This document shows positions 2,873 through 56,058 of a stretch of DNA of 56,058 bases, one piece after another. A model generated the notes under the pieces. That model was given only the letters and a program-made list of their open reading frames with translations. It had not been told where the DNA came from and searched no databases. How positions within the stretch are numbered: position 1 is the stretch's first letter; each line of letters opens with the position of its first letter. This DNA comes from an uncultured Rheinheimera sp. (lineage in GTDB: Bacteria; Pseudomonadota; Gammaproteobacteria; Enterobacterales; Alteromonadaceae). Where the stretch lies: positions 1 to 56,058 of the forward strand of contig CBIMJC010000001.1 in the NCBI GenBank assembly GCA_966244125.1, in the 5' to 3' direction. Both the position numbers and the translations under genes were made by a program.

Positions 2873-4054
2873 CTAACCCCGTACCACTTTCTCCGCAATA
2901 AATTGCTGAATCTGAGTTTGAGAATAGCCCAGTGAAGACAGCAGTTGCTGAGCGTTTTCGCTTTCTTTAGGCGGGTTGTAACGCAGACCGAATTTTTGCT
3001 CATTCATCTCTATCGGCAAGGCTGGCAGTTTGATAGCTGAGCCATTGTCCAGATAGATATCCACTAAACCCCCTGCATTGAGGTGCGGATCACTGACCAG
3101 ATCCATTGGCTTATTCACCGGCGCGTAAGGCAAACCTATGGTATCGAGTTTTTGCATCAGGCTGTCCGTAGGCATTTGTGCAAACAGCAGCGTGAGGCGG
3201 GGAATGATCAGGTTGCGGTGATCAAAACGCCCGCTATTGCTGTCCAGTCTGGTATCGCTGGCAAAGTCAGTCAGTGCAAAAGCTTCACAGAATTTACGCC
3301 ACTGGGTGTCACTGACCACAGCCACAAAGACTTTTTCGTTGTCTGCTGTGGTAAAGGAATCGTATACCCCCCAGGCGGACTGACGTACTGACATAGGAGG
3401 AGGTTCGACCCCACTGATGGCACCTTGAGCTATATGCTGCCCAACCAAAAAGGCTGTGGTTTCAAACAAAGCACTTTGCACCTTTTTACCAAGACCGGTG
3501 CGATGTTTTTCCTGTAAGGCGGCAAGAATACCAATAACACCAAACATGGCGCCTGTGATGTCGATCACCGAAGCACCGGCCCGCATGGGCTTGTCAGGCA
3601 GGCCTGTCATATAGGCTAAGCCACCCATCATTTGTGCCACTTCGTCCAGCGCAGTGCGGTGCTCGTAAGGGCCTGATAAAAAACCTTTTAATGAACAGTA
3701 CACTATGCCCGGATGCTTTGCGGACAGACTGTGGTAATCCAGAGCATATTTCTCCAGTGCGTCGGGACGGAAGTTTTCAATCACCACATCGGCTGTGGCG
3801 ACCAGCTCTGTGACGAGCTGCAACCCCTGAGCTGTGTCCAAATCAACACAAAGGCTCTTTTTATTGCGGTTATACATAGAGAAATAACCAGCGCCAGAAC
3901 CTTTCAGCCGTCTGGTATTGTCGCCTTTCAGCGGCTCCACTTTGATCACTTCTGCTCCCAGGTCGGCCAAAATCAGGCCAGTCGCCGGGCCCATCACCAT
4001 ATGGCTGAACTCTATTACCCGAATCCCCTGTAAGGGTTGAACACTATGCTGCAT
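2873..4054 (-). CDS. CaiB/BaiF (family III) CoA-transferase, copy 1
   Basis: PLQGIRVIEF, LADLGAEVIKVEP, NRNKKS, ENFRP, catalytic D in SVIDITG. Confidence 0.93.
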   Translation of the reverse strand: MQHSVQPLQGIRVIEFSHMVMGPATGLILADLGAEVIKVEPLKGDNTRRLKGSGAGYFSMYNRNKKSLCVDLDTAQGLQLVTELVATADVVIENFRPDALEKYALDYHSLSAKHPGIVYCSLKGFLSGPYEHRTALDEVAQMMGGLAYMTGLPDKPMRAGASVIDITGAMFGVIGILAALQEKHRTGLGKKVQSALFETTAFLVGQHIAQGAISGVEPPPMSVRQSAWGVYDSFTTADNEKVFVAVVSDTQWRKFCEAFALTDFASDTRLDSNSGRFDHRNLIIPRLTLLFAQMPTDSLMQKLDTIGLPYAPVNKPMDLVSDPHLNAGGLVDIYLDNGSAIKLPALPIEMNEQKFGLRYNPPKESENAQQLLSSLGYSQTQIQQFIAEKVVRG

Positions 4055-4106
4055 CTTTGTCCGTCCGTTGCTCTGAACTAAATAAAACTGGTTATGAAAG
4101 ATTTAA

Positions 4107-4124
4107 TGATATAATCTTATATCA
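4107..4124. promoter_or_regulatory. Island operator palindrome, site 1 (TGATATAATCTTATATCA)
   Basis: Perfect 8-bp arms in the divergent gap; motif recurs at 8 other intergenic sites. Confidence 0.8.
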
Positions 4125-4150
4125 ATTGAGGCTTGGGTGTAAGCCCTATT

Positions 4151-4278
4151 TATACCCAAGTTACTTGAAGTTTCGGCGAGGCGACAAGCTAGTGAGACCC
4201 CAGGAGCATAGTAAACCTATGTGACTGGGGCGAGATGGCGCAGTCAACAAAGCGGCAACTTCAAGGACGAAGGGTATA
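4151..4278. repeat. ERIC/IRU-type miniature inverted-repeat element
   Basis: 128 bp with TATACCC...GGGTATA ends and the central core GTGAGACCCCAGGAGCATAGTAAACCTATGTGACTGGGG, matching the ERIC core. Confidence 0.85.
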
Positions 4279-4318
4279 TCCGGATCATGTGTTTTGCTGC
4301 AGAGGGTAAAGAAACCAG

Positions 4319-5248
4319 ATGAGTAAGGTCGATATTCTGATCAGTGAAGTGGGTCCGCGTGACGGACTGCAAAGTATTGCCAGCATTATGCCAACGGCAG
4401 CGAAAAAACAGTGGATCAGCGCTTTAGCGGCCGCTGGTCTGCGCGAAATTGAAGTGGGTTCTTTTGTGCCCGCCACAGTCTTACCGCAACTGGCGGATAC
4501 AGCTGAACTGGTGGCTCATGGCCGCACTATTGAGGGCCTGCACATTGCGGTGCTGGTGCCTAATCTGCGGGGGGCTCAAAGTGCTATCGCTGCGGGAGCG
4601 CATAAAATCAGTATCCCCTTGTCCGTCAGCGAAACCCATAGCCTGCGCAACGTCAAACGTACCCATGGCCAAATGCTGGAAGAAATTGCCCGCATCGCCG
4701 AACTGGTCAAAGCTCAGCCTGCAGCTGTGCGCCCGCATTTTGAAGTAGGACTGTCGACCGCTTTTGGTTGTAGCCTTGAAGGACCAGTGTCTGAATCTTT
4801 GGTGGTGCAACTGGCGGAAGCAGCACTTGGCGCAGGTTGTGATGAAGTGGGCCTGTCGGATACGACTGGCAGCGCCAATCCGGCACAGCTGCGCCGTTTG
4901 GTTGGCAAAGTCTGGTCTGCGGTAGGCAAAGACAAACTTTGTGGTGTGCATCTGCACAATACCCGTGGTCAGGGGTTAGCCAATGCACTGGCTGCCATCG
5001 ACATGGGCATTAGCACTGTCGATGCGTCTATGGGCGGCATTGGTGGTTGTCCGGCAGCGCCCGGTGCCAGTGGCAATATTGTCACCGAAGATCTGGTGTT
5101 TTTGCTGGAGTCTATGGGGCTGGAAACCGGCATTAACTTTGCCGCCTTATGTGCAGCCCGCGGGGTGTTTGCCTCAGCCATGCCCGGCACTGAACTTTAT
5201 GGTTTTACCCCCCTGGCTGGTTTACCCAAAGGATTAGAGATCAACTGA
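4319..5248 (+). CDS. HMG-CoA lyase family (DRE-TIM) acyl-CoA lyase, copy 1
   Basis: [16 protein letters not shown] metal motif, GGCP. Confidence 0.9.
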   Translation: MSKVDILISEVGPRDGLQSIASIMPTAAKKQWISALAAAGLREIEVGSFVPATVLPQLADTAELVAHGRTIEGLHIAVLVPNLRGAQSAIAAGAHKISIPLSVSETHSLRNVKRTHGQMLEEIARIAELVKAQPAAVRPHFEVGLSTAFGCSLEGPVSESLVVQLAEAALGAGCDEVGLSDTTGSANPAQLRRLVGKVWSAVGKDKLCGVHLHNTRGQGLANALAAIDMGISTVDASMGGIGGCPAAPGASGNIVTEDLVFLLESMGLETGINFAALCAARGVFASAMPGTELYGFTPLAGLPKGLEIN

Positions 5249-6654
5249 TGGCACAGACCTTATTCGATAAATTATGGGCCGATCACGAAGTGATGGTGCT
5301 GGAAGACAATCTGTCTCTGCTGTACATAGACCGGATTTTTTTGCATGAACGCACAGGCTCTGTTGCCCTGGAAAGTCTGGTGGCTGCAGGCCGTGCTGTG
5401 CTTAATCCGGAAAAAGTGTTCTGCAGCATGGACCATATAGTAGACACCCATCAGGGCAGAACAGACGACACCCTGGTGCCCAGTGGCAAAGAATTTATTC
5501 AGTCGACCCGCAAAGCGACTCAGGCGGCAGGTATCCGGCTTTTTGATATGGATGATCCTATGCAAGGCATAGTGCATGTGATTTCGCCTGAACTCGGCAT
5601 AGTGCAACCAGGTTGTACCCTGATTTGCCCGGACAGCCATACCTGTTCTCAAGGCGCTTTGGGAGCATTGGCCTGGGGCGTTGGCTCCAGTGAGGCTGAG
5701 CATGCCTTAGCCACCAATACGTTGGTGGTGCAGCGGCCAAAAAACATGAGGGTGAATCTGACAGGTGTGCTGGCGCCCGGCGTGACGGCCAAAGATGTGA
5801 TTCTGCAGCTGATTGCCCAGTATGGCGCAGCGGGTGGCACAGGTTATGCCATTGAATTTGCCGGTGAGGTGATTGATGCGCTGAGCATTGAAGCGCGCTT
5901 AACCTTATGCAATATGGCGGTGGAGTTTTCCGCCTTTACCGCCCTGATAGCCCCTGATCACAAGACCTTAGAGTACCTTGAAGGCAAAGCTTATGCGCCG
6001 CAAGGCGATAGCTGGCTGCAAGCCAAACAACACTGGGATAACCTGTTCAGTGATCATGATGCCCGCTTTGACAAAGAACTGAGCCTGGATTGCAGCCAAC
6101 TGGCACCAGTGGTCAGTTGGGGCACCAGTCCGCAACATGCCTGTGCCGTCACAGCTACTGTGCCTGTGGTGCCAGAGGCGTCAGCTGGCAGCGACCAGAG
6201 CAGTTATTTGCGGGCTTATCGTTATATGGATCTTGAGCCCGGGCAGGCGCTGACCAGTCTGGCCATTGATGCCGCCTTTATTGGCTCCTGCACCAACAGC
6301 CGCATCAGCGACCTGCGTGAAGCTGCCGCCATTTTGCATGGGCGTAAAGTGGCGGACGGGGTCAAAGCTATTTGTGTGCCCGGTTCCAAAGCTGTTAAAC
6401 GTATGGCAGAAGCTGAAGGGTTGGACCAAATCTTTATCGCTGCAGGTTTTGAGTGGCGTGAACCTGGTTGTTCTATGTGCTTTTTTGCCGGTGGCGAAAA
6501 TTTTGGTTTTCAAAAACGGGTGGTCAGCAGTACCAATCGCAATTTTGAAGGCCGGCAAGGGCCGGAAACCCGCACTCATTTAGCCAGCCCTGTCACTGTG
6601 GCAGCTTCGGCTATTGCGGGCCGGATCGCGGATCCAAGGGAGTATTTGCCATGA
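5248..6654 (+). CDS. leuC: LeuC-like [4Fe-4S] hydratase large subunit, copy 1 (probably catabolic)
   Basis: [30 protein letters not shown]; non-canonical HERTGS where LeuC usually has HEVTS; no leuA/leuB nearby. Confidence 0.9.
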   Translation: MAQTLFDKLWADHEVMVLEDNLSLLYIDRIFLHERTGSVALESLVAAGRAVLNPEKVFCSMDHIVDTHQGRTDDTLVPSGKEFIQSTRKATQAAGIRLFDMDDPMQGIVHVISPELGIVQPGCTLICPDSHTCSQGALGALAWGVGSSEAEHALATNTLVVQRPKNMRVNLTGVLAPGVTAKDVILQLIAQYGAAGGTGYAIEFAGEVIDALSIEARLTLCNMAVEFSAFTALIAPDHKTLEYLEGKAYAPQGDSWLQAKQHWDNLFSDHDARFDKELSLDCSQLAPVVSWGTSPQHACAVTATVPVVPEASAGSDQSSYLRAYRYMDLEPGQALTSLAIDAAFIGSCTNSRISDLREAAAILHGRKVADGVKAICVPGSKAVKRMAEAEGLDQIFIAAGFEWREPGCSMCFFAGGENFGFQKRVVSSTNRNFEGRQGPETRTHLASPVTVAASAIAGRIADPREYLP

Positions 6655-7289
6655 CACCTTTTGTCACTCATAGCGGCGTGGCGGCGGCCCTGCTGCGCAC
6701 CAATATAGACACTGACGCCATTATTCCGTCACGGGAAATGAAACTGGTATCCAAACAAGGTTTGGCTGAAGGTTTGTTTGCCGGCTGGCGTTATACGCAA
6801 GTGGGCGGCCGTGAACCCAACCCGGAATTTATTCTGAATCAGGCGGCTTATCAGGGCACCAGTATTTTGCTGGCAGGAAAAAACTTTGGTTGTGGTTCGT
6901 CGCGTGAACATGCGGTCTGGGCTTTGGCTGAATATGGCATCCGCGCCATTATTGCGCCGAGCTTTGGTGCCATTTTTTATGGCAATTGTATCCGCAATGG
7001 CATTCTGCCTTTGTGCCTGCCTGATGAAGTCATAGTGGCGATGGCGGCACAAATTCAGCAGCCGCAACAGCATAAAATCCAGATTGATTTGGCGCGCCGT
7101 CAGGTGACGGCCGTGGACGGCTCTGTGTATGAATTCAGCATAGCCCCATCATGCCAGTTGATGTTACTGGAAGGCCTGGATCAGATAGGTTTAACGCTGA
7201 AACGCTCTGAGCATATAGCCGCTTTTGAGTCGGACTATAAAAAACGCCGCCACTGGTTGTTTGAATTGCCAGCCACTGTTACGGGCTAA
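6651..7289 (+). CDS. leuD: LeuD-like hydratase small subunit, copy 1
   Basis: NIDTDAIIP, NFGCGSSREHAVWAL; ATGA overlap with leuC. Confidence 0.9.
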   Translation: MTPFVTHSGVAAALLRTNIDTDAIIPSREMKLVSKQGLAEGLFAGWRYTQVGGREPNPEFILNQAAYQGTSILLAGKNFGCGSSREHAVWALAEYGIRAIIAPSFGAIFYGNCIRNGILPLCLPDEVIVAMAAQIQQPQQHKIQIDLARRQVTAVDGSVYEFSIAPSCQLMLLEGLDQIGLTLKRSEHIAAFESDYKKRRHWLFELPATVTG

Positions 7290-7394
7290 GCAACACATAG
7301 AGATTTGATTATACGAGTCATAAAAACTCGCTATTTTTCGACAGCTTAGAGCTGTGATTAATATAGACAGACCAATAAGTTGAAGGGGAAGTTT

Positions 7395-8285
7395 ATGCGT
7401 CCGCATGTAGAAATGGTTGATGAAAAAGATTTGATCTGGCACCCGTCTGAACTGATGGGTGGCACAGGCTCTGCCCGGCAGCGTAACTTAAGTTATGACG
7501 AAGAAGATGGTTCAGTCTCTGCCAAGGTGTTGTTTGATACGGACTGGACCAGACCTGCTGGGGTGCATATAGCACAAACCGAATGGTATGTACTGAGCGG
7601 TGAAGTTCGTATTGGCGATGAACTGCTAACCGAAGGCGGCTATTGGTGCACTCCGCCTGGCATTCTGTGTCCGGCATTAACGGTCAAAGCTGGTACCGAG
7701 ATCCTGTATTTCCGCGAATTTGGCACCTGGGAATTTGAAGTTGCTGACAAAAGCAAAGACACAGTGCGGCCGGACCAAAAACTGGTGATCAAACACAGTG
7801 ACAAAATGGACTGGATCCCGGTGGAAATAGGCAGCCCAATGGACTTTTCCGCTGGTGGAACTCCGGTACCGGGGCTATTTATTAAATTGTTGTTCCGCGA
7901 CGAAAAAACTGATTTTTACACCCGTCTGATCCGGGCCAAGCCGGGTTGGGTGGAGCATCCTTTAGCGCATCACCCGGTCTACGAAGAGGCTTACACTTTA
8001 GAAGGCTCGTTTGAGTTTAACTTTGGTCAGCAGTGGCCGGGCGTGTATTTTTTCCGTCCAGCCTTAGTGCGTCATGGTGATTTCCGCTCTGGTCCTGAAG
8101 GCACCACCTGGTTATTACGTTGTGATGGCCGCCTGGTGGACTGGTATACCGACAATGCCAAAATGGAAATGCACGGCGACCCGGTGAACTGGGGACCTGC
8201 TTACCCCGGTACTCAGGCACCGGTTCCACTGCAGCCTGTGCGCTCTCGTTCCATAGGGCCTATGAAGGATCCCTATTACACCTGA
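7395..8285 (+). CDS. Double cupin (DUF4437/ChrR-like) protein
   Basis: Two cupin-like halves (GVH....EWYVLSG; HHPVYEEAYTLEG...YFFRP..VRHG); ATG 7395 after a GAAGGGG RBS. Confidence 0.7.
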   Translation: MRPHVEMVDEKDLIWHPSELMGGTGSARQRNLSYDEEDGSVSAKVLFDTDWTRPAGVHIAQTEWYVLSGEVRIGDELLTEGGYWCTPPGILCPALTVKAGTEILYFREFGTWEFEVADKSKDTVRPDQKLVIKHSDKMDWIPVEIGSPMDFSAGGTPVPGLFIKLLFRDEKTDFYTRLIRAKPGWVEHPLAHHPVYEEAYTLEGSFEFNFGQQWPGVYFFRPALVRHGDFRSGPEGTTWLLRCDGRLVDWYTDNAKMEMHGDPVNWGPAYPGTQAPVPLQPVRSRSIGPMKDPYYT

Positions 8286-8312: not shown

Positions 8313-9308
8313 TTAGAAGGTCGGCAGTTTAGGTTGCTGATGGTCTTCCCAATAACGGGTGGCTTCTTCCACCATATTTTTACCTTCACCCAGCAAATAA
8401 TCCCGGCACAGCTGGGCGATGACGGAAAAATCTTTGTGCTGACGGTGTACCACATACCAGTGGTCCGTCAGTGGAAAGCCAGCTATCGGCAGTTGTACTA
8501 AATCTTGTTGCTGGCCATGGTCCAGACTTAAAGCCGGTACTATGGCAATACCCATTCGCGCCAATACCGCATGCTTAATGCCTTCGTTGCTGGCAATCAC
8601 TATATGCTTGTTTATGCTGTAGCCTGATGCGGCCAATAGCTTTTCTGTGGCTATACGGGTGCCGGATGCGGCTTCGCGCAGAATAAACTGCTCATTGGCC
8701 AGGTCTTGCCAGCTCAGGCTGGTGCGGCTGGCCAGCGGGTGTGACTGTGCTGCTATAGCCACCAGATGATTAACGCCCATAGGTGTCACCATCAGGCCCG
8801 GGTCTTGCGGCGGGTCGCCAAAAATATACAGATCATCCAGATTCTGCTGCAGTCGTTCCAGCATTGCTTTGCTATTGCCAAATTGCAGTGACAACTCAAG
8901 TTGTGGGTAACGGCGACAGAAAGGGCCGAGTAAATGCGGGCTGAAATATTCGGCTGAACTGACAATACCCAGGCTTAGTTTGCCGATCAGTGCATCCTGC
9001 AGTTGGTACAAAGCCGCTTCGAGCCTGTTGGTGCAGTCAAATATCTCACGGGCATGGGCCACCACCATTTCACCGGCATGGGTCAGTATGATGCGTCGTC
9101 CGGCCATTTCGTAAAGTGGCAGGCCAATGCCTTCAGACAACTTACGCATTTGCATGGAAACACTGGGCTGACTCAGGTGCAGGCGTTCGGCGGCGGCGAC
9201 AATACCGCCGGTTTCGGCCACAGCCAGCAAAATTTCCAGCTGGCGAAAGGTGCCGATGCGGGAGGCTAATCTGCCTTTAGGAAACAAAGCGGTCATCTGA
9301 GCCTGCAC
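8313..9308 (-). CDS. LysR-family regulator (CbbR/CmpR-like)
   Basis: TFRQL..AVA..G...AAERLHLSQPSVSMQ HTH; VSSAEYF.P.LLG.F; FILRE..SGTR; SNEGIK. Confidence 0.9.
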   Translation of the reverse strand: MQAQMTALFPKGRLASRIGTFRQLEILLAVAETGGIVAAAERLHLSQPSVSMQMRKLSEGIGLPLYEMAGRRIILTHAGEMVVAHAREIFDCTNRLEAALYQLQDALIGKLSLGIVSSAEYFSPHLLGPFCRRYPQLELSLQFGNSKAMLERLQQNLDDLYIFGDPPQDPGLMVTPMGVNHLVAIAAQSHPLASRTSLSWQDLANEQFILREAASGTRIATEKLLAASGYSINKHIVIASNEGIKHAVLARMGIAIVPALSLDHGQQQDLVQLPIAGFPLTDHWYVVHRQHKDFSVIAQLCRDYLLGEGKNMVEEATRYWEDHQQPKLPTF

Positions 9309-9438: not shown

Positions 9439-12084
9439 TCAGAACTTGTAGCTCAAACGAATACCTGCAGTTCTGCGTTGTGGCAAAGTCGCAACTACGG
9501 CATAAGGCACTGATTGGCCATTCGGGAAGAAGCCAAAGTCTACGTTACCAACAGCAGATTTAATCTTGTCGTCATCAAACAGGTTTTCCACGTAAGCGGT
9601 AACCAACCAGGACTGATACTGGGTGCCTGCGGACAAATCCCATTCCCAGTAAGCTGGCAGCTGAGAATGCTGGGCACGTTCAACGTTACGTTCAGAGCGG
9701 TACTGACCAAACAATTCGACAAAGCTGGCCGCTCCGCCTATGTCAAAGGAGTAACGGCCTGTGATGGTGCCAGAATGTTTTGACGACAAAGGCAAAGGCT
9801 GACCAGAGAAATCCGCGTCTGCATTACCAGCAATCATTTTGTCGACGTCACTGACTTTGGCGCCAGCCAGATCGGCGTTTTCCAGAATAGTAGTCAGGTT
9901 AAAATCAGTGTATTCGGCATCTGAGTACAAATAGGCCATAGACAAGCGGAAGTTATGGCTCACCTGCCAGACTGACTCCAGCTCTATACCTTTAACCTGA
10001 CTTTCACCGGCGTTAATCACAGACACAACCGCCAGTCCCATGTTATTGGTCAGGGTGAAGGGTGTTTGTTGATCCGAATATTTCCAGTAAAAGGCTGACA
10101 GATTGACGCTGGCATTGTTCTCCAGCGAATAGGCTTTGGCGCCTACTTCATAAGCAATCAGCTTTTCTGGTTTGTATACGCCATCAGTCACGTCGCCGTT
10201 GGCATCCGTGGTTGCAACGCCACTGGGTTTAAAGCCTTTGGAAACTGAGGCATAGGTAAAGACGGTTTCATTTAACTGATAATCGATACTGGCTCGCGGC
10301 AAAAACGCTGTATTATCAATGCTGTTTGAGGTGTGATAAGCCGGATTTGGCACCATGGTCTGGGTCACCGGGTCGAAAATCACACTGTTATCCATCATGA
10401 AGGCATCGTAGGTACGATTGTCGGCGTTGCCTGTGTAGCCTATGGTTTCATCGAGATAACGGCCTTCAAAGCCCAGGTTCAGGTCGTCAGTGACAGCCCA
10501 GTTGAGCAAAGCAGCGACAGACCAGTGGTCGGTGTCGCGGGTCATAGGTGTGACCACGTTTTGCCCGTCAGGCAGAGGCGCGTTTTTTATATCTTTGATA
10601 AAGCTGGTGAAAGGGGAGCGAGCTAAGGTCTTGATGACAGTCGGCTCGTGAGCACCTTCCCGCAACCAGAATTGGGTGCCAAAAGCTGTGTGCATATCTT
10701 CTTGCCAGAGCAGAGCCGAGGTCACCCAATTCACGGGCCCTGTTTCACCACTTAAACGGAATTCCTGACTGTACTGCTCCAATTCAAAGGCAGTATTGAC
10801 GTCAGCCTGAAAACCGTATTGCGACCAGGCCGCAGGCCCCAGATTTGGCGCTGCATAAAGAGAATAATTGGTCTTGTCGAAGTCTTCCTGAATATCCGAT
10901 TTGCTTTTGGTATAGCCGGACACAGAGCTGAACTCTATACCATCACTGGACCAGAGAAACTCCAGTGAAGCCCGGCTGTTTTTAATATCAGTGCCTGTGT
11001 AATCTTCGCCCGTTAAAGGGTTCAGCGAAAGGTCGATCAGGCTGGCATCGCCAGTGATAGTGCCTCTGACCATAGCGCGGCAGTCAGGCTGCACTGCATA
11101 GCCCATGCGGGTGATAATACTGTTAAAGGAGTTCCAGTAGGGATAATCGTAAGCTGATGTACAGTCAACACCCTGACCGTTTGCATCCCAGGCGTAAGGC
11201 AACATCACCGCGCCCTGAGCTGTATTCACTGAACCCGTGCCAAAGATGTTACCTGGCGTGTTTTCTGGCAGCATACTGCGGATAGTAAAAGTTGGACGCT
11301 GGCCGTAATGTTCATCTGAATGCTCAGCGCGGAAATATACAGATATTTCATCTGTCGGCAGGTAAAAGGCTGAAATCGCAGCGCCCTGAGAGTCAGAACC
11401 GCCGAGCAGATCACCACTGTTTGGGTTGGAATACTGGCCGTCACTGTTGGAGTCAATCAATTTGATTTTTGCTGCCAGCTTATCAGTGAGCCCACCTTCT
11501 AAAGCCACAGCCAAATCGCGGGTATTATCTTGTGCCAGGTGCACATCCACTTTTGTTTGGGTATCAAAACCCGGTTTTTTGGTCACATAGTTGATGGCGC
11601 CGGCAAAAGCACTACGACCATAGTTGACACTTTGTGGGCCTTTGACCACTTCCACCTGCTGTATATCCAGCAGTTTCATATTGGCTGTCGTACCACCACC
11701 AGACAAGGTCATGGTTTCGGAGGAGACGTCTATACCATCAATCAGCACTGCAACGTTTGGACGACCACGGTCTATGGTCAGGCCACGAATAGTGGGACGG
11801 GTGTCGTTCGGGCCGGCACCAATATCAAAGGTTAAACCGTTAATCAGTTTGGCGACATCTGCAGTATCCTGCACACCTTTTTCTTCAATTTGTTGTGATG
11901 TGACCGCAGAGATAGCTAAAGGTATGGTTTCGATGGTTTCAGCTATTTTCCGGGTCTTTACCTGAATTCGTTCAATAGTAGCGTCCTGCCCTTCTGTACT
12001 CTCTTGTTGAGCCATGGCGATGCCATGTACTCCCTGAGCAAATAAGGCAGCGATCGCCAGACTAAGTTTCTTCTTATTGTGCAT
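9439..12084 (-). CDS. TonB-dependent outer-membrane receptor
   Basis: Signal peptide from MHNKKKLSLAIAAL, TonB box (ERIQVKTRK), plug VEVVKGPQS..YG..A.AGAINYVTKKP, C-terminal F; AGGAG RBS before 12084. Confidence 0.95.
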   Translation of the reverse strand: MHNKKKLSLAIAALFAQGVHGIAMAQQESTEGQDATIERIQVKTRKIAETIETIPLAISAVTSQQIEEKGVQDTADVAKLINGLTFDIGAGPNDTRPTIRGLTIDRGRPNVAVLIDGIDVSSETMTLSGGGTTANMKLLDIQQVEVVKGPQSVNYGRSAFAGAINYVTKKPGFDTQTKVDVHLAQDNTRDLAVALEGGLTDKLAAKIKLIDSNSDGQYSNPNSGDLLGGSDSQGAAISAFYLPTDEISVYFRAEHSDEHYGQRPTFTIRSMLPENTPGNIFGTGSVNTAQGAVMLPYAWDANGQGVDCTSAYDYPYWNSFNSIITRMGYAVQPDCRAMVRGTITGDASLIDLSLNPLTGEDYTGTDIKNSRASLEFLWSSDGIEFSSVSGYTKSKSDIQEDFDKTNYSLYAAPNLGPAAWSQYGFQADVNTAFELEQYSQEFRLSGETGPVNWVTSALLWQEDMHTAFGTQFWLREGAHEPTVIKTLARSPFTSFIKDIKNAPLPDGQNVVTPMTRDTDHWSVAALLNWAVTDDLNLGFEGRYLDETIGYTGNADNRTYDAFMMDNSVIFDPVTQTMVPNPAYHTSNSIDNTAFLPRASIDYQLNETVFTYASVSKGFKPSGVATTDANGDVTDGVYKPEKLIAYEVGAKAYSLENNASVNLSAFYWKYSDQQTPFTLTNNMGLAVVSVINAGESQVKGIELESVWQVSHNFRLSMAYLYSDAEYTDFNLTTILENADLAGAKVSDVDKMIAGNADADFSGQPLPLSSKHSGTITGRYSFDIGGAASFVELFGQYRSERNVERAQHSQLPAYWEWDLSAGTQYQSWLVTAYVENLFDDDKIKSAVGNVDFGFFPNGQSVPYAVVATLPQRRTAGIRLSYKF

Positions 12085-45591: not shown

Positions 45592-45601
45592 GGTAGCGCC
45601 C

Positions 45602-48965: not shown

Positions 48966-49006
48966 TTATGTCTATCTTGAAGCAAGATCACAATAAAAGG
49001 CTGTGC

Positions 49007-49870
49007 ATGAAACTCTTTATTCTTGGTTTGGGCCATGTTGGAAAGGCTCTGGCGAAAAAGCTGAAAGCCGATGGTCATCAGGTGGTGGGCAGTACCACAA
49101 CAGAAAGCAAAGTGGCTGAACTGGAGTTACTGGTGGATACGGTAGTGGTGCTCAAAGGCGAAGAAAGCGCCAAAGTGGCGGCCGCTGCGGCGGGCTGCGA
49201 CGCCATTATTGTCACAGTGGCGCCTAATGTCCGCAACACCAGAACCAAAGAAGAGCGGGAGGTGCATTACGAGCAGGTGCTGGTGCGCAGCTGCCAGAGT
49301 GCAGCTTTGGCCTGCCCACGGGTGATCTTCTTATCGTCCTTTTCGGTGTATGGCGACGGTGGTGTGGGCACAGCAGCTATTGATGAGCTGACGCCAACCG
49401 CCAATCATCAGGAACCTTCCTCCAAATACTATCAACTGGCCGAACAGCAGGTGCTGAGCTCAGCAGCAGGCTGTGTGCTGCGTTTCCCTGATATGTACGG
49501 CGCGCCCGGCGATTTCAGCTTCCCACAGCGGGTGAAAATGGCCATTGATTATTTTGGTGGTAAAGCCATTTTCAGCGCTGATGCGCCTTTGTACGCCATC
49601 CATTTTGAAGATGTGGTGGACGCTGTGCATCACGTCATTCAGGCACAGCTTTGCGGCATTTATAACGTCTGCGACAACTCTCAGGTGCCTGCCACCAATA
49701 AAGAGGTGTTTGATGCTATCTGTGACCAAAACGACTGGCCACGTTTGCAGTTTCTCGACCAAATCAAAGCCCCGCTGCGCAAAATTTCTGCGGCAAAAAT
49801 TTACGCCACTGGCTATCAGGTGAAACACCCTGATCCAAACGCCCCTCTTGCCGCCAGCGCAACGGCCTGA
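49007..49870 (+). CDS. NAD(P)-binding extended/atypical SDR oxidoreductase
   Basis: ILGLGHVG Rossmann motif, FLSSFSVYG, AEQ.VL, G.YNV.D. Confidence 0.85.
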   Translation: MKLFILGLGHVGKALAKKLKADGHQVVGSTTTESKVAELELLVDTVVVLKGEESAKVAAAAAGCDAIIVTVAPNVRNTRTKEEREVHYEQVLVRSCQSAALACPRVIFLSSFSVYGDGGVGTAAIDELTPTANHQEPSSKYYQLAEQQVLSSAAGCVLRFPDMYGAPGDFSFPQRVKMAIDYFGGKAIFSADAPLYAIHFEDVVDAVHHVIQAQLCGIYNVCDNSQVPATNKEVFDAICDQNDWPRLQFLDQIKAPLRKISAAKIYATGYQVKHPDPNAPLAASATA

Positions 49871-49893
49871 AGCAGTCAAAAAGGAGAAGGCAG

Positions 49894-50718
49894 ATGACGC
49901 GAATAGTAATTACCGGCAGCACCAAAGGCATAGGCAAAGGTCTTGCCGCTGAATTTGCCCGTTTAGGCCACAAAGTGGTGATCAGCGGCCGGCGGCAGGA
50001 TGATGTGGATGCCACTTTATCTGAATTGGGCTACCCATCTGAGCAACTGACAGGGCTGGCTTGTGACAGCGTCGACAACACTCAGGTGGAAGCCTTATGG
50101 CAATTCGCCTCTGAGCAGTTTGGTGGTGTGGATATCTGGATCAATAACGCAGGTTTGGCCAGAACGGTCTGGCCCATTCTCGACACGCCGGACAACGAAA
50201 TCCAACAGATGGTGCAGACCAATATTATCGGCACTATCAACGGCTGCAAAGTGGCGGCCAGCGGTATGAAAAAAGCCGCCAGGCAAAGCCTTGGCCTGGT
50301 CAGAGAGCCGCAGAAAATTTTCAATATGCTGGGTGGGGGCAGTGACGGCGAATACTTCACAGGTATGGGCGTGTACGGCACCACCAAAAGAGCACTCGAC
50401 TACTTCACCAGCGCTTTGAGTAAAGAGCTGCAGGCCGACCATATTCTGGTTGGCAAAATCCGCCCCGGCATGATCATTACCGAAGGCGTGATCCGTGAAG
50501 CTCAGGCGGATATGGACAATTTTGAAAAGCGCCGCAAGTTCGCCAACTTATTGTGTGATCACGTCGAAACCGTAGCGCCTTATCTGGCGCGGGAAATTCT
50601 CGCCCTGAATAAAACCGGCCGCAAAATCCGCTGGCTGACTCCACTGAAAATGACTGGCCGCATGCTGTCCGGTCTGATCCGGCCTGCGCCGGATAAATTC
50701 AGCCGTTATGGCCTGTAA
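49894..50718 (+). CDS. SDR oxidoreductase, NOL/NYC1 (chlorophyll b reductase)-like, copy 1
   Basis: ITGSTKGIG, DIWINNAG, IFNM.G.GSDG, YGTTKR, PGM..TE, N.L...VETVA.YL. Confidence 0.8.
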   Translation: MTRIVITGSTKGIGKGLAAEFARLGHKVVISGRRQDDVDATLSELGYPSEQLTGLACDSVDNTQVEALWQFASEQFGGVDIWINNAGLARTVWPILDTPDNEIQQMVQTNIIGTINGCKVAASGMKKAARQSLGLVREPQKIFNMLGGGSDGEYFTGMGVYGTTKRALDYFTSALSKELQADHILVGKIRPGMIITEGVIREAQADMDNFEKRRKFANLLCDHVETVAPYLAREILALNKTGRKIRWLTPLKMTGRMLSGLIRPAPDKFSRYGL

Positions 50719-50753: not shown

Positions 50754-51578
50754 ATGTCAGTGACTAAAAATAAAGAAACCAAAACCCTTGATGAATTTTT
50801 GGCTGAAAACCCGAATGTGGATGTCAGCCGTTACTGGGAGCGCTGCTGGGGCATTCTGACTGCGCTGAAACAGAAGATCACCAGCAGGTTTCCACACCTC
50901 AATCAGCACCCTTCCACTTTTGATCGTGAGTACTACACCTCACCCAATGGTGAGTTTGAAGGTTCTTATGCCGCCTGGACAGGCAACGGTGTGGAGTGGC
51001 TGGTCAATTCCTGGATAGGTAACCGCAAAGCCAGCATTCTGGATATGAACACCACTGCCTTTTTGGGGCAGGAAACCGACGTTCCTCATCTGGTTATTGT
51101 GTTTGGCACTGTGCCTAAGTTGTTTTGTTATTGCGACTACACCCCGCGCAAGAACCTGCTGACCGACGTGGCTTATCTGGACAAGTACTACGGCCCGGAC
51201 GTGAACGACTGGTATATGAAGCTGCGCTCTCACCCGAATTTTCACTGGTCAGTCAGTCACGGCAGTTATATGCGCGCTCTGATCAACCCGGCCACGCAAA
51301 GCTTAATGGGGGAGTTAAACGACGAAAACATCAGCATTTTCGAAACCTATCTGCATGAAATGGTTGACCGCTGGCTGGGCTGGTTAGACAAGGCCACTCC
51401 AGTGCCGGAAGCCGAACGTGCTGAACTGCAACGCAATGACCACATTATCCGTGAAATGAGTTACCGCCGTGACCCGATGAACAAACTGGCGGCCAATGTG
51501 TTTGGTCAGGCGGAAGTGGAAAAGATGATTGAGCTGCGCATGGGCAAAGCGCAAATCGACGCCAACGCCAGCTATTAA
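50754..51578 (+). CDS. RCC-reductase / ferredoxin-dependent bilin reductase-like protein 2
   Basis: VEWLVNSWI, FL..ETDVPHL, DYTPRKNL..D..YL.KYY, S...YMRA..NP, ERAELQRND..IR, DP......FG. Confidence 0.78.
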   Translation: MSVTKNKETKTLDEFLAENPNVDVSRYWERCWGILTALKQKITSRFPHLNQHPSTFDREYYTSPNGEFEGSYAAWTGNGVEWLVNSWIGNRKASILDMNTTAFLGQETDVPHLVIVFGTVPKLFCYCDYTPRKNLLTDVAYLDKYYGPDVNDWYMKLRSHPNFHWSVSHGSYMRALINPATQSLMGELNDENISIFETYLHEMVDRWLGWLDKATPVPEAERAELQRNDHIIREMSYRRDPMNKLAANVFGQAEVEKMIELRMGKAQIDANASY

Positions 51579-51610: not shown

Positions 51611-52948
51611 ATGATGGAGCAGGTGCAATCGGCAGCCGCTAAAAAATTCTTTGGCGTCCAGCTGGTGGATGGTCTGAAGCGCCGTAACTGGCTGACGTAT
51701 TTGTTTGCGGTGCTGATTTCGTCAGGTTATGCCGGAGCTTTGTCGATACTGCAGCCCGGTCTGTTGCAGGTGATGGGTATTCCTTATGCCGAACAGGCCA
51801 AACTCACCGGGCTTTTGGGTGGGCTACAGGAACTGGTGTTTATCCTGATGATGGGGCTTTATGGGGTGCTGGCCGATCGGTTTGGCCGGCGGGCTATTTA
51901 TGTCTTTGGTCTGGCGACCACTGCATTGGGTTTTGCGCTTTATGGCAGTGCCAGCTCTGTAGAACAGTTGGTTGCCTACCGGCTGATAGTGGCTTTTGGC
52001 TCCGCCGCTATGGTCGGCATGATGGTGACAGTAGTAGCTGACTATTCAGCGGACTGCAGCCGCGGCAAAGCCAATGGCTTTCAGGGTGCTATTGCGACCC
52101 TGGGGGCTTTTATTCCGCCTGTACTGGCCGGTTTACCACAAAGTTTTGTTGCACAGGGGTATAGCGAAGCGGCTGCCCAGCAGGCCACTTTTGCTGTGGC
52201 CTCAGCTTTGGGCGTTATTGCTGCTGTGGTGGCGCTGCTCGGCTTGTCAAATCAGGTCGGTAAAGTGCTGAGCGCACAAAAAGAGCCCTTGCTGCGGTTG
52301 CTGCGTCAGGGCGCTGTGGCGGCGAAAAAACCTGCTATTGCCTTGTCTTATGGTGCTGCTTTTATCTCCCGTGGCGATCTGGCGGTCACCGGCGCTTTTA
52401 TGGGGCTCTGGCTGGTGCAACATGGCACAGGCTCCCTTGGTCTCTCAACCAGTGATGCCATGGCACAACTGGCAATGCCCGCCATTTTAATGGTGGTATC
52501 AGGCGCTCTGGTCGGTTCCATTCTGACAGGTTATCTGAGTGACAAAGTCAGCCGTATTACTGCAGTTGCCATAGCGTCCGGATTGGCCGGCACTGTGTAT
52601 GGCGCGATGTTTTTTGTCAGCGATCCGACAGCCTCCTGGGTATTCCCACTGCTTTTTGTCATGGGCATAGCCGAAATCAGTGCTTTTGTCTCCAGTCAGG
52701 CCTTAGTAGGTGAACAGGCGCCAGCTGAGCGTAAAGGTGCCGTCATAGGTTTGTTTGGTGTAGCAGGCGCTATCGGCATTCTGGTCGCGACCACGGGCGG
52801 TGGTTTCCTGTTTGCTCATTGGTCCCCTTCCAGCCCCTTTGTGCTGTTTGGGGTGCTTAATTTCATCGTGTTTATCTGGAGTCTGTTGCTACGCAGACGC
52901 AACTCCAACTCCTTAGCCAATTCATTATTAACAGAACAACGTATTTAA
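51611..52948 (+). CDS. MFS transporter (paralog of 34115-35419)
   Basis: GVLADRFGRR; shares IAL.YGAAF.SR..L...GAFM.LWL with 34115. Confidence 0.92.
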   Translation: MMEQVQSAAAKKFFGVQLVDGLKRRNWLTYLFAVLISSGYAGALSILQPGLLQVMGIPYAEQAKLTGLLGGLQELVFILMMGLYGVLADRFGRRAIYVFGLATTALGFALYGSASSVEQLVAYRLIVAFGSAAMVGMMVTVVADYSADCSRGKANGFQGAIATLGAFIPPVLAGLPQSFVAQGYSEAAAQQATFAVASALGVIAAVVALLGLSNQVGKVLSAQKEPLLRLLRQGAVAAKKPAIALSYGAAFISRGDLAVTGAFMGLWLVQHGTGSLGLSTSDAMAQLAMPAILMVVSGALVGSILTGYLSDKVSRITAVAIASGLAGTVYGAMFFVSDPTASWVFPLLFVMGIAEISAFVSSQALVGEQAPAERKGAVIGLFGVAGAIGILVATTGGGFLFAHWSPSSPFVLFGVLNFIVFIWSLLLRRRNSNSLANSLLTEQRI

Positions 52949-52965: not shown

Positions 52966-53817
52966 ATGACACAAAGCCAAGTTGAAACTAAACCCATGAT
53001 GACCGAAGAGTTCGCACGCCATCTGGCCAGCGGACTGAAAATGGATACCAGCGCGATTTACACTGAAGTGTTAGCACTGCGGGATCGTATTTGGGACTAT
53101 ATCAGTTCAGAGCTGGCCTTTACCGAAGATTTGGGCTGCGAAGATATCCACGAGTTCACCGATTTAGCAGGTAATCCGCTGGGCAGAATGCGTAACTTTA
53201 CCGGTCAGGGCGATAATCCGGTGGATTGGGTGATCCATTCCAACATTGGTTTGCCGGAAAACACCTTTACCAACATTCACCTGACCTTCTGGATGAAAGA
53301 CAACACCGACATTCCGCATCTGGGTCTGGCCTTTGGCACCTTACCTGAAGCTTTTTATTATGCCGACCTGATGCCACGTTATGAGCTGGTTACGCACCCG
53401 AATTATGTGGAAAAATATTACGCCCCTGTTAATCAGCTGGCGCTGGATCACCAGAAAGCCTTATTTCAGGATGGGGTGAAACCTTTTCATGCCGCTATGC
53501 CTTTTATTCGGGCCAGCATCAGCCCTTGTGCTATTTGTGGTGTGGGACCGCTGGCGTTTTTTCAGCAGCATGCCCGGGAGCAGATCATGAGCATGGTGAA
53601 ATACTGGGTCGGATTAGTGAAGAAGGCGCAGCCCGATACCGATCCGGAAGCTTGTGCGCAAAGGCGTCTGCATGATTATCAGCAACGCAAGAATATAGTT
53701 TATCTGGACCCGGCTAACCCTATAGCGGAGCGTCTGGTGGGTAAAAAGGCGGCGGACCGACTGGTCAGGATACTGGCAGGTGAAGAACGTAATGGCGTAC
53801 CCTACGCTCAGATCTGA
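52966..53817 (+). CDS. RCC-reductase / ferredoxin-dependent bilin reductase-like protein 3
   Basis: VDWVIHSNI, FW...TDIPHL, DLMPRYELV..PNYVEKYY, FIRASISP.A, DP......G. Confidence 0.78.
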   Translation: MTQSQVETKPMMTEEFARHLASGLKMDTSAIYTEVLALRDRIWDYISSELAFTEDLGCEDIHEFTDLAGNPLGRMRNFTGQGDNPVDWVIHSNIGLPENTFTNIHLTFWMKDNTDIPHLGLAFGTLPEAFYYADLMPRYELVTHPNYVEKYYAPVNQLALDHQKALFQDGVKPFHAAMPFIRASISPCAICGVGPLAFFQQHAREQIMSMVKYWVGLVKKAQPDTDPEACAQRRLHDYQQRKNIVYLDPANPIAERLVGKKAADRLVRILAGEERNGVPYAQI

Positions 53818-53853: not shown

Positions 53854-54585
53854 ATGTTGAAAAAGATTGTGCCCGGCATTGCCGCTGTGCTGGTGCTGGC
53901 TGTGGCTGGCACCTTAGGCTGGATGAGCATTCCTTTTGCGTATCAGCAGGAAGAAACCGCAGCAGCGCTGGTGTCGACCGATCAGGTGCAGGTGACTCAG
54001 GGCGATTTTATCAGCTTTGCGCCAGCACACAGCACGCCAGACAAAGGCATAGTGTTTTATCCGGGCGGTAAAACCAAAGCTGAAACCTTTGCCCCTTTGC
54101 TGCGGCGTTTTGCTGAGCAGGGTTATCTGGCGGTGATAGTGCCTATGCCATTTAACACCGCCTTTTTGGGCATCAGCAAAGCGGATCAGGTGGTTGCCGC
54201 ATTTCCTGCAGTACAGCAGTGGGTGATAGCCGGGCATTCGTTAGGCGGCGTGGCGGCGTCTGAATATGTCAAAACTGCCGATCTGAACCGCTTTAAAGGC
54301 TTGTTATTGCTGGCTTCTTATCCGGCCAGCGATATCAGTCAGTTGGCTATTGCCGTCAAGTCGATTTCCGGCTCAAAAGACCTGCAATCCACCCCTGAAA
54401 AAATCAACGCCAACAAGCCGAAGTTGCCGGCCAACACCAGCTATGTGGTGATCGAAAACGCCAACCACTGGCAGTTTGGATCTTTTGCGGCACAAGATGA
54501 ACAGCAGCAGGGCTTGCTCAGTCCGTCAGAACAGGCGGAGCAGGTATTTGCCCAAAGCTTAGCCTTTTTACAGAGCCTGCCCTGA
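53854..54585 (+). CDS. Membrane-anchored/exported alpha/beta hydrolase (esterase-like)
   Basis: N-terminal TM, FYPGG, GHSLGG, GSKD, NANH.QFG (S-D-H triad). Confidence 0.88.
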   Translation: MLKKIVPGIAAVLVLAVAGTLGWMSIPFAYQQEETAAALVSTDQVQVTQGDFISFAPAHSTPDKGIVFYPGGKTKAETFAPLLRRFAEQGYLAVIVPMPFNTAFLGISKADQVVAAFPAVQQWVIAGHSLGGVAASEYVKTADLNRFKGLLLLASYPASDISQLAIAVKSISGSKDLQSTPEKINANKPKLPANTSYVVIENANHWQFGSFAAQDEQQQGLLSPSEQAEQVFAQSLAFLQSLP

Positions 54586-54618
54586 TGGCTGGCTCTGATG
54601 GCTTATCCCGGGTTCAGG

Positions 54619-55407
54619 CTAGCTGAATAAATCCCGCTTCTTAAAACCAGCCGTCATAAAGCGGACAAAGGCTTTGCCTCCTGTTAACCAGGCCACTTTG
54701 CTACCGGATTTATCGCTGGCGAGAATGCCGTTGACCAGCCATGGCGTCACGGTTTCTACGGTATCGCCGAGGATATTGAAGATCTTTTTTACTTTCAGCC
54801 ATTCGGCGGAAGAGGTGTCGTAATCACCCACTAATAAATCTGTCACCACTATGCCGGGGCTTAAGGTATTGACCTGCACAGCTGTGCCTTTGACTTCTTT
54901 TTGCAGTGATTTATTCAGGTAAGTGACGGCTCTTTTGGTGGCACCGTAAATCGTCATGCCGGGTTGAGTGGCATCATTGCTGCCAAAACCTTCCATATTC
55001 CAGAGCTGGCCATGGTTTTGTGCTTTCATGCCTTTTAACGCAACACTACTCGCCAGTGCCACACCCGTTAAATTAGTAGCAATAATGCTGTGGATGGCGG
55101 CGGGGTCCTGCTGTTCCAGTGGTTTGCGCGGCAGACTGATGCCGGCGTTGTTGATCCAGATATCTACAGCCGAGAAGGTGGCAACCGCATGGTCCCATAC
55201 CGCCTGTAGCTGGTCGTAGCTGCTGACATCACAAGCCAGTCCTGTTACCTGATCGGCACTGAACTGATGTGCAAACTGCGCCACCACTTCATCGACCTGT
55301 GGCTGAGAGCGGCCGGTAATCACCACCTTGCAGCCCTGTTTTAAAAAGTTTTCGGCCAGCCCTTTGCCTATGCCACGGGTACTGCCGGTGATAATCACTG
55401 TTTTCAT
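54619..55407 (-). CDS. SDR oxidoreductase, NOL/NYC1-like, copy 2
   Basis: ITGSTRGIG, CDV, DIWINNAG, NMEG.GS, YGATKR, KSLQ.E, LSPG.V.TDLL, FNIL. Confidence 0.82.
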   Translation of the reverse strand: MKTVIITGSTRGIGKGLAENFLKQGCKVVITGRSQPQVDEVVAQFAHQFSADQVTGLACDVSSYDQLQAVWDHAVATFSAVDIWINNAGISLPRKPLEQQDPAAIHSIIATNLTGVALASSVALKGMKAQNHGQLWNMEGFGSNDATQPGMTIYGATKRAVTYLNKSLQKEVKGTAVQVNTLSPGIVVTDLLVGDYDTSSAEWLKVKKIFNILGDTVETVTPWLVNGILASDKSGSKVAWLTGGKAFVRFMTAGFKKRDLFS

Positions 55408-55450
55408 GGTTTTTCCACCTGTTTCTTCGAGGATTTATTGATTCTTTAAT

Positions 55451-55468
55451 TGTTATAACTTTAATACA
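55451..55468. promoter_or_regulatory. Island operator palindrome, site 9 (TGTTATAACTTTAATACA)
   Basis: Divergent gap; same right half as site 8. Confidence 0.7.
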
Positions 55469-55510
55469 AATGTAAGCTGGTGAACAGAGTAAATAGCAGC
55501 AGGATCAGTG

Positions 55511-56058
55511 ATGACAGCGGTTTTTCCCATTGGCAGTGTTGGTCATACCTTAATGCAGCTCAGAGGCACCTGGCACGACAGTGTTGAGTTATTTCATTTG
55601 GATGGCAGCCCACTAGTTGACGATACCCTGGCCGGCAGTGGCACCCCGGGCCAGTCGCCTTTTGACAATCTGGTGTATATAGATTTTGACGGGGTAAATT
55701 TTAAAATCACCAATGTGCATTTTCGTGGCCGGCCGGCTCTGGCTAAAACCTTTACCGGTCAGTTAAAAGACGGGGTGCTGGTGTTTGACGCTATGGGTCC
55801 CGGCAGTTACGAAAATGTCGGCATGTCCGGCGGCCCCGGCATACTGACCTTCAGCGCAAGGCAGTTAAACCAGGCCACAGATGTGTATATCGAACCCGAC
55901 TTTATTATAGTGACAGCGCCAGGCCACAGAACAAGACACACAGTGCTCTACCGCAACGGCCAGGCCACCCGCACTTTAACGGCCAAAGGCGTTCGCTTAT
56001 CACCTTGTTGTCAGCAGCGGCACCCGCTCGATCCACGAGGCCCGGATGGTGAAGTGCA
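55511..56058 (+). CDS. Hypothetical protein, partial; probable calycin-like beta-barrel
   Basis: Not in the ORF track. ATG after AGGA; MTAVFPIGSVGHTLMQLRGTWHDSVELFHLDG... open to the window end; G-x-W start motif. Confidence 0.6.
   Translation, partial: MTAVFPIGSVGHTLMQLRGTWHDSVELFHLDGSPLVDDTLAGSGTPGQSPFDNLVYIDFDGVNFKITNVHFRGRPALAKTFTGQLKDGVLVFDAMGPGSYENVGMSGGPGILTFSARQLNQATDVYIEPDFIIVTAPGHRTRHTVLYRNGQATRTLTAKGVRLSPCCQQRHPLDPRGPDGEV

Follow-up and report, generated by a model that had tools for sequence, protein, structure and literature searches.

The 56,058-nucleotide stretch analysed here (hereafter, the window), contig CBIMJC010000001.1 of an uncultured Rheinheimera sp. (GenBank assembly GCA_966244125.1), carries a large catabolic island of ~50 genes and raises the question of which compound these genes serve to consume. 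The initial annotation had proposed an undescribed pathway for the breakdown of imported linear tetrapyrroles, encoded by a co-regulated island of more than 53 kb. The window is the entire contig C1 of a 4.16-Mb genome in 491 contigs, and its 52 open reading frames (ORFs), numbered g1 to g52 in order, were scanned against Pfam and NCBIfam (C and G numbers below denote contigs and genomes). The island was found to be a real, conserved regulon, apparently mobile as judged from sequence comparison. Our preferred prediction, which we consider reasonably probable, is that this GntR-type regulon consumes chlorophyll or pheophorbide down to pyruvate, short acids and ammonia. Tetrapyrrole catabolism as such fitted the folds, the operator and the co-inheritance of the genes, whereas imported linear bilins became less likely as the input. 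The likely input shifted to chlorophyll or pheophorbide opened by the cell itself because hydrolases, a Rieske oxygenase and its reductase were found past base 56058.

Shared operator and extent of the regulon

The proposal that a shared operator unites the island was borne out. An 18-bp palindrome, TGWTATA-N4-TATAWCA, was found at eight sites in the window at no more than two mismatches versus 0.38 expected from shuffles, and none of 100 shuffled windows reached eight sites. Three perfect copies were present in the window (4107..4124, between g4 and g5; 33333..33350, between g28 and g29; 39146..39163, upstream of g35) versus none in the remaining 4.10 Mb. Copies with one mismatch numbered two in the window versus four elsewhere, and those with two mismatches three versus 42. 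The five imperfect sites were located at 12215..12232 (upstream of g10), 15631..15648 (between g14 and g15), 36909..36926 (between g32 and g33), 48948..48965 (between g44 and g45) and 55451..55468 (between g51 and g52). All eight were situated at operon starts, 3-270 bases from an ORF start, including that of g32 (36020..36850, -), a GntR/HutC-type (UTRA) regulator gene identified by profile match and present in 14 of 14 related islands; operators were found upstream of g32 at 36909 and 37111. Since the motif was built from these same sites, its independent support comes from the leave-one-out scores (14-25 bits) and from related islands, where it again marks the starts of operons. An AT-rich chance pattern was ruled out by the excess over shuffles and by the leave-one-out scores. 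A palindrome at operon starts together with a regulator gene, both conserved with their orthologues, is the arrangement of a GntR/HutC regulon, and g32 is likely the operator-binding repressor, as predicted from sequence.

Retrieval of the sequence past 56058 demonstrated that the same regulon goes on. Gene g52 (55508..56058, +), encoding a conserved protein, is cut by the contig end and continues in frame on C473, which overlaps C1 by 8 bases; C473 and C320 overlap by ~10 bases and C320 and C312 by 27. Because these contig-end overlaps join C473, C320 and C312 to the window, the regulon including its continuation was estimated at ~60 kb. In genome G007, g52 is followed by genes for a Rieske oxygenase, a two-rubredoxin/reductase fusion, a chlorophyllase-profile protein, an alpha/beta hydrolase and a membrane protein, and counterparts of these five genes were found on C320 and C312. 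The operator sites before the continuation genes scored 20.2 and 19.2 bits. The claim of a co-regulated island of more than 53 kb was thus extended at its right end and narrowed inside: the segment at 19420..23755 (no strand assigned), with a 494-aa membrane ORF, hipA (HipA_C) and, upstream, a small ORF interpreted as hipB, is a foreign insertion. Its genes g19 and g20 were found in none of the 14 related islands, which ruled it out as a part of the regulon.

Conservation across genomes, which had been suggested as a check, was confirmed. Fourteen well-covered islands were compared using 57 query genes at an identity of at least 35%, with the partly fetched G872 left out. Twenty-nine query genes were present in all 14 islands and 34 in at least 12, in shuffled order; as the related genomes are not independent, these counts measure linkage and are not a P value. 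The family PF06405 (RCC_reductase) was detected in four of the 61 relatives, in 12 of the 401 genomes drawn from the family (five genera), in three of 179 from a Shewanella-like family chosen by an OmcA/MtrC marker and in 2 of 400 scored genomes of a class-wide draw (one more was unscored), which added just one genome, G779; these draws overlap and include G000. In the family of G049, none of five genomes was positive, a sample that is uninformative. Orthologues of g33 (at least 79% identity) and of the Rieske oxygenase (at least 76%) occurred in exactly the same 12 of the 401 genomes as RCCR; of the remaining genomes, ten contained a single distant homologue of g33, and in two the Rieske search gave a match that was distant or fragmentary. 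The nearest loci were Rheinheimera-titled, and others were found in Paraglaciecola hydrolytica and Thalassotalea mangrovi. Core genes were 87% identical in G874, a member of another family with flanks at 46%, versus 67% in G031, which belongs to the same genus and has flanks at 97%. These identity patterns point to horizontal transfer of the island.

Several observations concern the boundaries of the regulon. A second hipA-type insertion was read from the sequence of C473, so that two separate hipA-type toxin-antitoxin insertions break the island, in this genome alone. A ~120-bp repeat element was seen by eye at both regulon ends (window ~4150-4270 and the end of C320). In a genome lacking RCCR, a fragment of 58 residues that shares 91% identity with the Rieske protein of the island (G410:C1:424472-424645) suggests that an island was lost. 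Two off-island operator matches in the own genome, at C414:1918 (22.3 bits) and C55:4443 (15.6 bits, within background), precede genes for exported alpha/beta hydrolases, one of which is a g50 paralogue and one of which has a weak chlorophyllase match; it is possible that both are remote members of the regulon.

Enzyme complement and proposed route

Three RCCR/bilin-reductase-like genes had been reported in the window, and all three were recovered. PF06405 matched g47 (50754..51578, +; 49.1 bits, E 6e-13) and g49 (52966..53817, +; 46 bits, E 5e-12) above the cut-off of 24.9 bits. The product of g27 (30756..31496, -) had no Pfam match, yet it aligned to g49 at E 1.8e-12 and was recognised by its modelled fold; modelling of the RCCR fold was done on g27, and g47 and g49 were assigned by sequence profile. 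The g27 prediction (pLDDT 91.7) agreed with the alpha/beta/alpha sandwich of this fold and had Arabidopsis RCCR (2zxk) as its top Foldseek match (E 2.8e-11, TM 0.71), followed by PebA, HY2, PebB, PcyA and PebS, and the PDB fold matches shown at E<=0.001 comprised only RCCR, bilin reductases, coproporphyrinogen oxidase and two Ycf2-FtsHi motor subunits. For g47, Arabidopsis RCCR was the only significant PDB sequence match (E 7e-9). At the positions of Glu154 and Asp291 of Arabidopsis RCCR (AtRCCR), read from the alignment and presumably those of catalytic acids, g27 has Asp in place of the former, and an Asp-Pro pair lying one column off the latter was invariant in 20 of 20 aligned sequences. 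Each fully retrieved island contained three RCCR-like genes. Gene g47 was paired with g49 (nine loci) or with a fourth RCCR-like type (six loci), never with both, and this fourth type sits between the Rieske gene and its reductase genes in 6 of 15 loci, replacing g49. A search of g47 against plasmid sequences gave no match.

The RCCR-like genes are accompanied by genes for short-chain dehydrogenases/reductases (SDRs). Profile searches identified an extended-SDR reductase, g45, and a classical SDR, g46 (48968..50718, +), and sequence comparison identified g51 (54619..55407, -) as a g46 paralogue. Among 32 metagenomic loci of at least 5 kb, g46 was beside the RCCR-like gene in 11 and g45 in 10, and the order g45-g46-g47 recurred. 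The NOL/NYC1 label that the initial annotation gave to two SDRs was not recovered for g46 and g51: the searches gave generically named SDRs from bacteria and archaea, none of them designated NOL or NYC1. Fusions of a g30-type major facilitator superfamily (MFS) transporter with a g51-type SDR were observed in many other bacteria, and one Rieske protein occurred in fusion with both an SDR and the PCP_red domain of protochlorophyllide reductase.

The Rieske protein contains PF00355 and VanA_C domains, and its CxH...CxxH and DxxHxxxxH motifs were invariant in 10 of 10 sequences. Against the chlorophyllase profile PF07224 (cut-off 26 bits), the G007 protein scored 48.6 bits and the fragment on C320 reached 36; the chlorophyllase-like protein has a lipoprotein-like start, and the pheophytinase-like alpha/beta hydrolase is membrane-anchored. 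Further alpha/beta hydrolases were identified by profile match as g50 (53854..54585, +), also membrane-anchored, and g23 (25634..26473, -). Gene g10 (9439..12114, -; profile match) encodes a TonB-dependent receptor, likely serving for outer-membrane uptake as judged from its sequence. MFS transporters are encoded by g30 (with the membrane protein gene g29 at 33396..35419, +), g39 (43559..44719, +; efflux type), g42 (at 46438..48885, -, with g43, a protein without an assigned family, and the glyoxalase/epimerase-like g44) and g48 (51611..52948, +).

Profile searches likewise substantiated the TonB receptor, the four MFS transporters and the flavin oxygenases that had been listed for the window, and identified amidases, LeuCD pairs and lyases. 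Gene g21 (23756..24991, -; PF01494), present in 14 of 14 islands, encodes a single-component FAD monooxygenase. According to profile and PDB searches, g26 (29419..30687, -) encodes a flavoprotein of the acyl-CoA dehydrogenase (ACAD) fold and is likely, by sequence, a two-component monooxygenase with the flavin reductase g13 (13975..14466, -; PF01613) as its partner. The aldehyde dehydrogenases g24 and g25 (26460..29413, -; PF00171) have the catalytic Cys and Glu motifs. Two isochorismatases, g15 (15710..16402, +; D...TSGC motif intact) and g22 (25012..25623, -; motif present), resemble the maleamate amidase NicF in fold, Asp-Lys-Cys triad and TSGC motif, with 4l07, 1nba and 3ot4 as the nearest PDB entries, of which we take 4l07 and 3ot4 to be maleamate amidases. 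The PuuE-allantoinase-like proteins g16 and g17 (16406..18390, +) scored below the TIGR03212 cut-off, matched PDB PuuE at E 6e-22 and are predicted from sequence to be cyclic imide or lactam hydrolases. Gene g28 (31547..33229, -) encodes a two-domain nitrilase-family C-N hydrolase with the E-K-C triad in domain 1. LeuCD-like hydratases are encoded by g6-g7 (5248..7289, +; Fe-S cysteine motifs intact) and g37-g38 (41283..43471, +). C-C lyases include the HMG-CoA-lyase-like (citramalyl-CoA-lyase type) g5 (4319..5248, +; PF00682 and NF004283 above cut-off) and g36, which lies beside the family III CoA-transferase gene g35 (39177..41335, +), both being core genes found in 14 of 14 islands; an accessory family III CoA-transferase is g4 (2873..4054, -; PF02515), found in three. 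Gene g40 (44716..45648, -) encodes a lyase of the methylisocitrate/2,3-dimethylmalate-lyase family with an intact KRCGH motif and a TIGR02317 score below cut-off, which makes it a member of the PrpB/Dml family and not an orthologue. The amidase, nitrilase, aldehyde-dehydrogenase, LeuC, HMG-lyase and KRCGH motifs were all intact. It was ruled out that g6/g7, g37/g38, g40, g5 and g36 are housekeeping copies, since those are on C98 (leuCD), C369 (prpB) and C99.

The gene set, the folds, the intact amidase, hydratase and lyase motifs, the shared operator and the strict co-inheritance were observed directly, and from them, together with the enzyme families and the substituents that the rings of chlorophyll a are known to carry, we infer the following route. 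The exported chlorophyllase-like and pheophytinase-like hydrolases would take off phytol, and g50 and g23 the methyl ester. The pigment would be imported via the TonB receptor and the MFS carriers; the fusions of g30-type MFS with g51-type SDR suggest that transport is coupled to an SDR. The macrocycle would be opened by the Rieske oxygenase with electrons from the rubredoxin-reductase fusion. In one of the least certain steps, g27, g47 and g49, with g45, g46 and g51, may bind and reduce the linear product so that labile CH2 bridges are formed. Equally among the least certain is the next step, in which g21 and g26/g13 may hydroxylate pyrrole alpha-carbons and thereby free monopyrroles, whose aldehydes g24 and g25 would oxidise to acids; PMC6165268 describes a two-component monooxygenase acting on pyrrole-2-carboxylate. 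The AMDase-fold proteins g33 (37196..37972, +) and g41 (45602..46381, -) may then, again among the least certain assignments, decarboxylate or tautomerise the products to pyrrolinones or imides. Ring opening would follow by g16/g17 and g28 and release of ammonia by g15 and g22. Finally, the LeuCD pairs would hydrate dialkylmaleates, and g40 or the pairs of CoA-transferase and HMG-lyase-like enzymes would split the products into pyruvate and an acid or acyl-CoA, for which cleavage of citramalyl-CoA is a precedent (PMC9875883). The paralogue pairs would accommodate the different substituents of the four rings.

Chlorophyll as the probable substrate and the alternatives

A number of results weigh against a route that starts from chlorophyll. 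The first concerns macrocycle opening. No above-cut-off match to the PaO domain PF08417 was found in the genome (the control was positive), and in a quick tree the Rieske protein grouped separately from the long Rieske proteins of green algae, in a clade by itself; this tree comprised 76 rows with SH-aLRT support only, left out the fragments among 150 matches and included no characterised PAO. An orthologue of PAO was ruled out by the lack of the domain and the separate clade, and the Rieske protein may function like PAO without belonging to its family. If the Rieske protein, lying outside the PAO family, merely hydroxylates linear compounds and the hydrolases serve other esters, then the island would scavenge tetrapyrroles that are already linear, such as phycobilins, biliverdin, phyllobilins or excreted red chlorophyll catabolite (RCC). 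The g27 fold resembles those of PebA, PcyA and HY2 to much the same degree as that of RCCR (TM 0.64-0.75), and algae are reported to excrete RCC (PMC9306834). This explanation is nevertheless unlikely: the chlorophyllase-like and pheophytinase-like genes were found in 13 of 14 islands, under the operator; Pfam assigns the proteins to RCCR and not to the bilin reductase family; and no haem-oxygenase gene that could supply biliverdin was found in the genome by a search that was positive in known control genomes. A photosynthetic reaction-centre gene was also not found genome-wide, with the search again positive in known controls, in agreement with the reported lack of photosynthesis genes.

Other points against chlorophyll concern the specificity of the upper enzymes. 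The acid at the AtRCCR Glu154 position is missing in g47 (Val) and in g49 and the fourth type (both Ala). An RCCR-like class of ~50% identity occurs alone outside islands, often by two-component or cation-efflux genes. PF07224 is permissive, since three of the 14 control genomes also pass its cut-off, and the search for a Mg-dechelatase (SGR) found none here and matched in no genome, which makes it uninformative. The high-GC genome G779 (2.8 Mb) has a single, isolated RCCR-like gene and lacks a g33-type gene; its 12 distant matches to the island Rieske protein occurred in mixed contexts, seven of them near full length at 34-39% identity. One of these Rieske matches has amidase, PuuE-like, cupin, MFS and TonB genes as neighbours. 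It could be supposed that proteins of the RCCR fold have been co-opted for a non-tetrapyrrole substrate, a different polycyclic N-heterocycle such as an alkaloid, an indole or a pyrrole pigment. The identity to AtRCCR is low, the active sites are altered in two of the three copies, the Rieske protein is of a generic VanA type and the chlorophyllase profile is permissive, all of which such a substrate would accommodate. We rate it as the least probable of the explanations considered, a distinctly unlikely one, in view of three opposing facts: all characterised enzymes among the g27 fold matches act on tetrapyrroles (PMC10151467), four plant-pathway look-alikes lie together under one operator, and chlorophyll turnover changed when hydrolases were knocked out at a locus matching this description in Shewanella acanthi.

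That locus, termed the SH-RCCR-type locus, was reported in a preprint (bioRxiv 10.64898/2026.03.19.712979) and contains structural homologues of CLH, PPH, PAO and RCCR within ~11 kb. Knockout of PPH-CLH slowed chlorophyll loss. The optical densities reached were similar (wild type 0.485 vs mutant 0.445), and the main text of the preprint shows neither ring-opened products nor growth on chlorophyll. In G874 (1 of 148 genomes of the main genus of the Shewanella-like family), the hydrolases, the Rieske protein and the RCCRs span ~11 kb and the whole island then follows, colinear with the window; G874 matches the S. acanthi locus by span and description only. The preprint differs in that its main text covers the steps to the primary fluorescent chlorophyll catabolite (pFCC), without a regulator, operator, transporters or lower pathway.

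The initial annotation included a maleate isomerase step, and this was not supported. Maleate cis-trans isomerase presumably has two catalytic cysteines; in 10 of 10 aligned g33/g41 sequences the second site is Gly and the first is Met or Tyr, and the replacement by Gly ruled out these Cys-less proteins as maleate isomerases. Moreover, in all three genomes examined (G110, G168 and G303), clusters without RCCR or the island Rieske protein hold relatives of the lower module. They contain orthologues of g4-g8 and g15-g17 at 52-86% identity together with g21, g41 and LeuCD paralogues; close orthologues of g15-g17 were found in all three genomes and those of g4-g7 in two, along with a related GntR gene and operator-like sites. 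Because of these relatives, the lower enzymes need not be specific for chlorophyll. The sister clusters (G303:C1:129-173 kb; G168:C17:213-260 kb; G110:C1:2735-2760 kb) comprise an FAD monooxygenase, a g41-like protein, PuuE-like proteins, aldehyde dehydrogenases, LeuCD, amidases, a lyase and TonB receptors, with hydantoinase/oxoprolinase in two of the three. Their hosts may be cross-feeders on monopyrroles or imides, or the lower enzymes may serve another substrate.

These clusters would be expected if one regulator controlled two functions, namely a short route for chlorophyll detoxification or phytol harvest, ending at a colourless linear product, and a separate lower module degrading free imides or another N-heterocycle. 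The efflux-type resemblance of g39 and g42 and the report of pigment change rather than growth in the preprint agree with such a division. It is nonetheless improbable, since island-type g33 co-occurs exactly with RCCR and the Rieske protein (12 of 401 genomes) and since all 14 islands have g27 within the operon of monooxygenase, dehydrogenase and amidase genes.

Consumption of chlorophyll or pheophorbide along one route thus remains the preferred reading, and it can be set against the systems already described. Plants end chlorophyll breakdown at stored phyllobilins. The island shares with the plant PAO/phyllobilin pathway (CLH/PPH, PAO, RCCR; NYC1/NOL) the combination of dephytylating-type hydrolases, a Rieske protein and RCCR folds. 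It differs in having three RCCR-like proteins, two of them without the acid at the Glu154 position, a non-PAO Rieske protein, a rubredoxin reductase instead of ferredoxin, and, in addition, a repressor, systems for import and ~25 genes for downstream catabolism. From this comparison, the top of the island likely works like the plant pathway without family membership at the PAO step. With the nicotinate maleamate pathway (NicF, maleate isomerase; dimethylmaleate hydratase/2,3-dimethylmalate lyase) it shares maleamate-amidase-like, LeuCD-like and Dml-like proteins with intact motifs; in contrast, no nicotinate hydroxylase or dihydroxypyridine dioxygenase was seen in the island, its isomerase-fold proteins lack the catalytic Cys, and PuuE-like hydrolases and CoA-transferase/HMG-lyase pairs are added. 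A family III CoA-transferase beside an HMG-CoA-lyase-like C-C lyase is also a feature of itaconate/citramalate degradation (PMC9875883), whereas the island hydratase is of the LeuCD type, in two sets, under a pigment-type regulon. Ferredoxin-dependent bilin reductases, including the heterotroph pre-PcyA proteins of PMC10151467, have the same fold and non-photosynthetic bacterial hosts; those reductases are biosynthetic and lie beside globin, V4R and Fe-S genes, whereas the island is catabolic and no haem oxygenase was found.

The upper part of the pathway has already been proposed in S. acanthi, so that the claim of an undescribed pathway holds for the lower route, which was not found in print; the literature search, in which most subscription journals were not covered, returned no paper on lower chlorophyll or bilin mineralisation or on this regulon. 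A more far-reaching proposal, for which we see the arguments as evenly balanced, is that the first complete mineralisation of chlorophyll is encoded here: a mobile ~60-kb regulon with PAO-independent Rieske opening, bridge cleavage to methyl-ethyl, methyl-vinyl and methyl-propionate maleates and further conversion to pyruvate, acyl-CoAs and ammonia, with the RCCR-free clusters cross-feeding on monopyrroles or imides. About a billion tonnes of chlorophyll are made per year (bioRxiv 10.64898/2026.03.19.712979). For every step of its breakdown the island offers candidate enzymes, and besides cultured hosts it provides a regulator whose defined operator could serve to identify the true inducer. 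What becomes of the carbon and nitrogen of chlorophyll in water and sediments can thereby be tested directly, and the results bear on sedimentary maleimide biomarkers and on the origin of plant RCCR.

Accessory and neighbouring genes

The remaining genes of the island are of mixed conservation. Genes g4-g9 are accessory, being found in 3-5 of 14 islands, and HacA/DmdB-type LeuCD and PrpB-like genes lie near several islands without g4-g9. Among them, g8 (7380..8285, +) encodes a cupin (DUF4437) and g9 (8313..9308, -; profile match) a LysR regulator present in 3 of 14 islands. The D-2-hydroxyacid dehydrogenase g18 (18466..19419, +) is likewise accessory (4 of 14). In contrast to these, the glutathione S-transferase g11 and the five-helix membrane protein g12 (12547..13897, -) were both present in 14 of 14. 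An exported DUF2141 protein is encoded by g31 (35480..35947, -) and a membrane protein by g34 (38020..39036, +). Two calycin-like barrels had been suggested. For g14 (14493..15482, -), which is 72-97% identical across related islands and had no match among PDB sequences, an Atlas score of 0.88 to DUF3598/BFA1 double beta-barrels provides a lead only; g52 was not confirmed (pLDDT 40), and a profile comparison of g14 with g52 gave no alignment.

The left flank, outside the island, contains a gene for an Ig-like-domain protein (3-1853, -) and two tandem DUF1840 genes (2017-2786, +), found among the compared loci only in G007. In G031, a cluster of acyl-CoA catabolic genes (G031:C1:3407-3436 kb) adjoins the island and holds its g15-g17. 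This cluster includes CoA-transferases, acyl-CoA dehydrogenases, two MmgE/PrpD proteins, an amidase and HacA/DmdB-type LeuCD, and it could handle phytol or acyl products.

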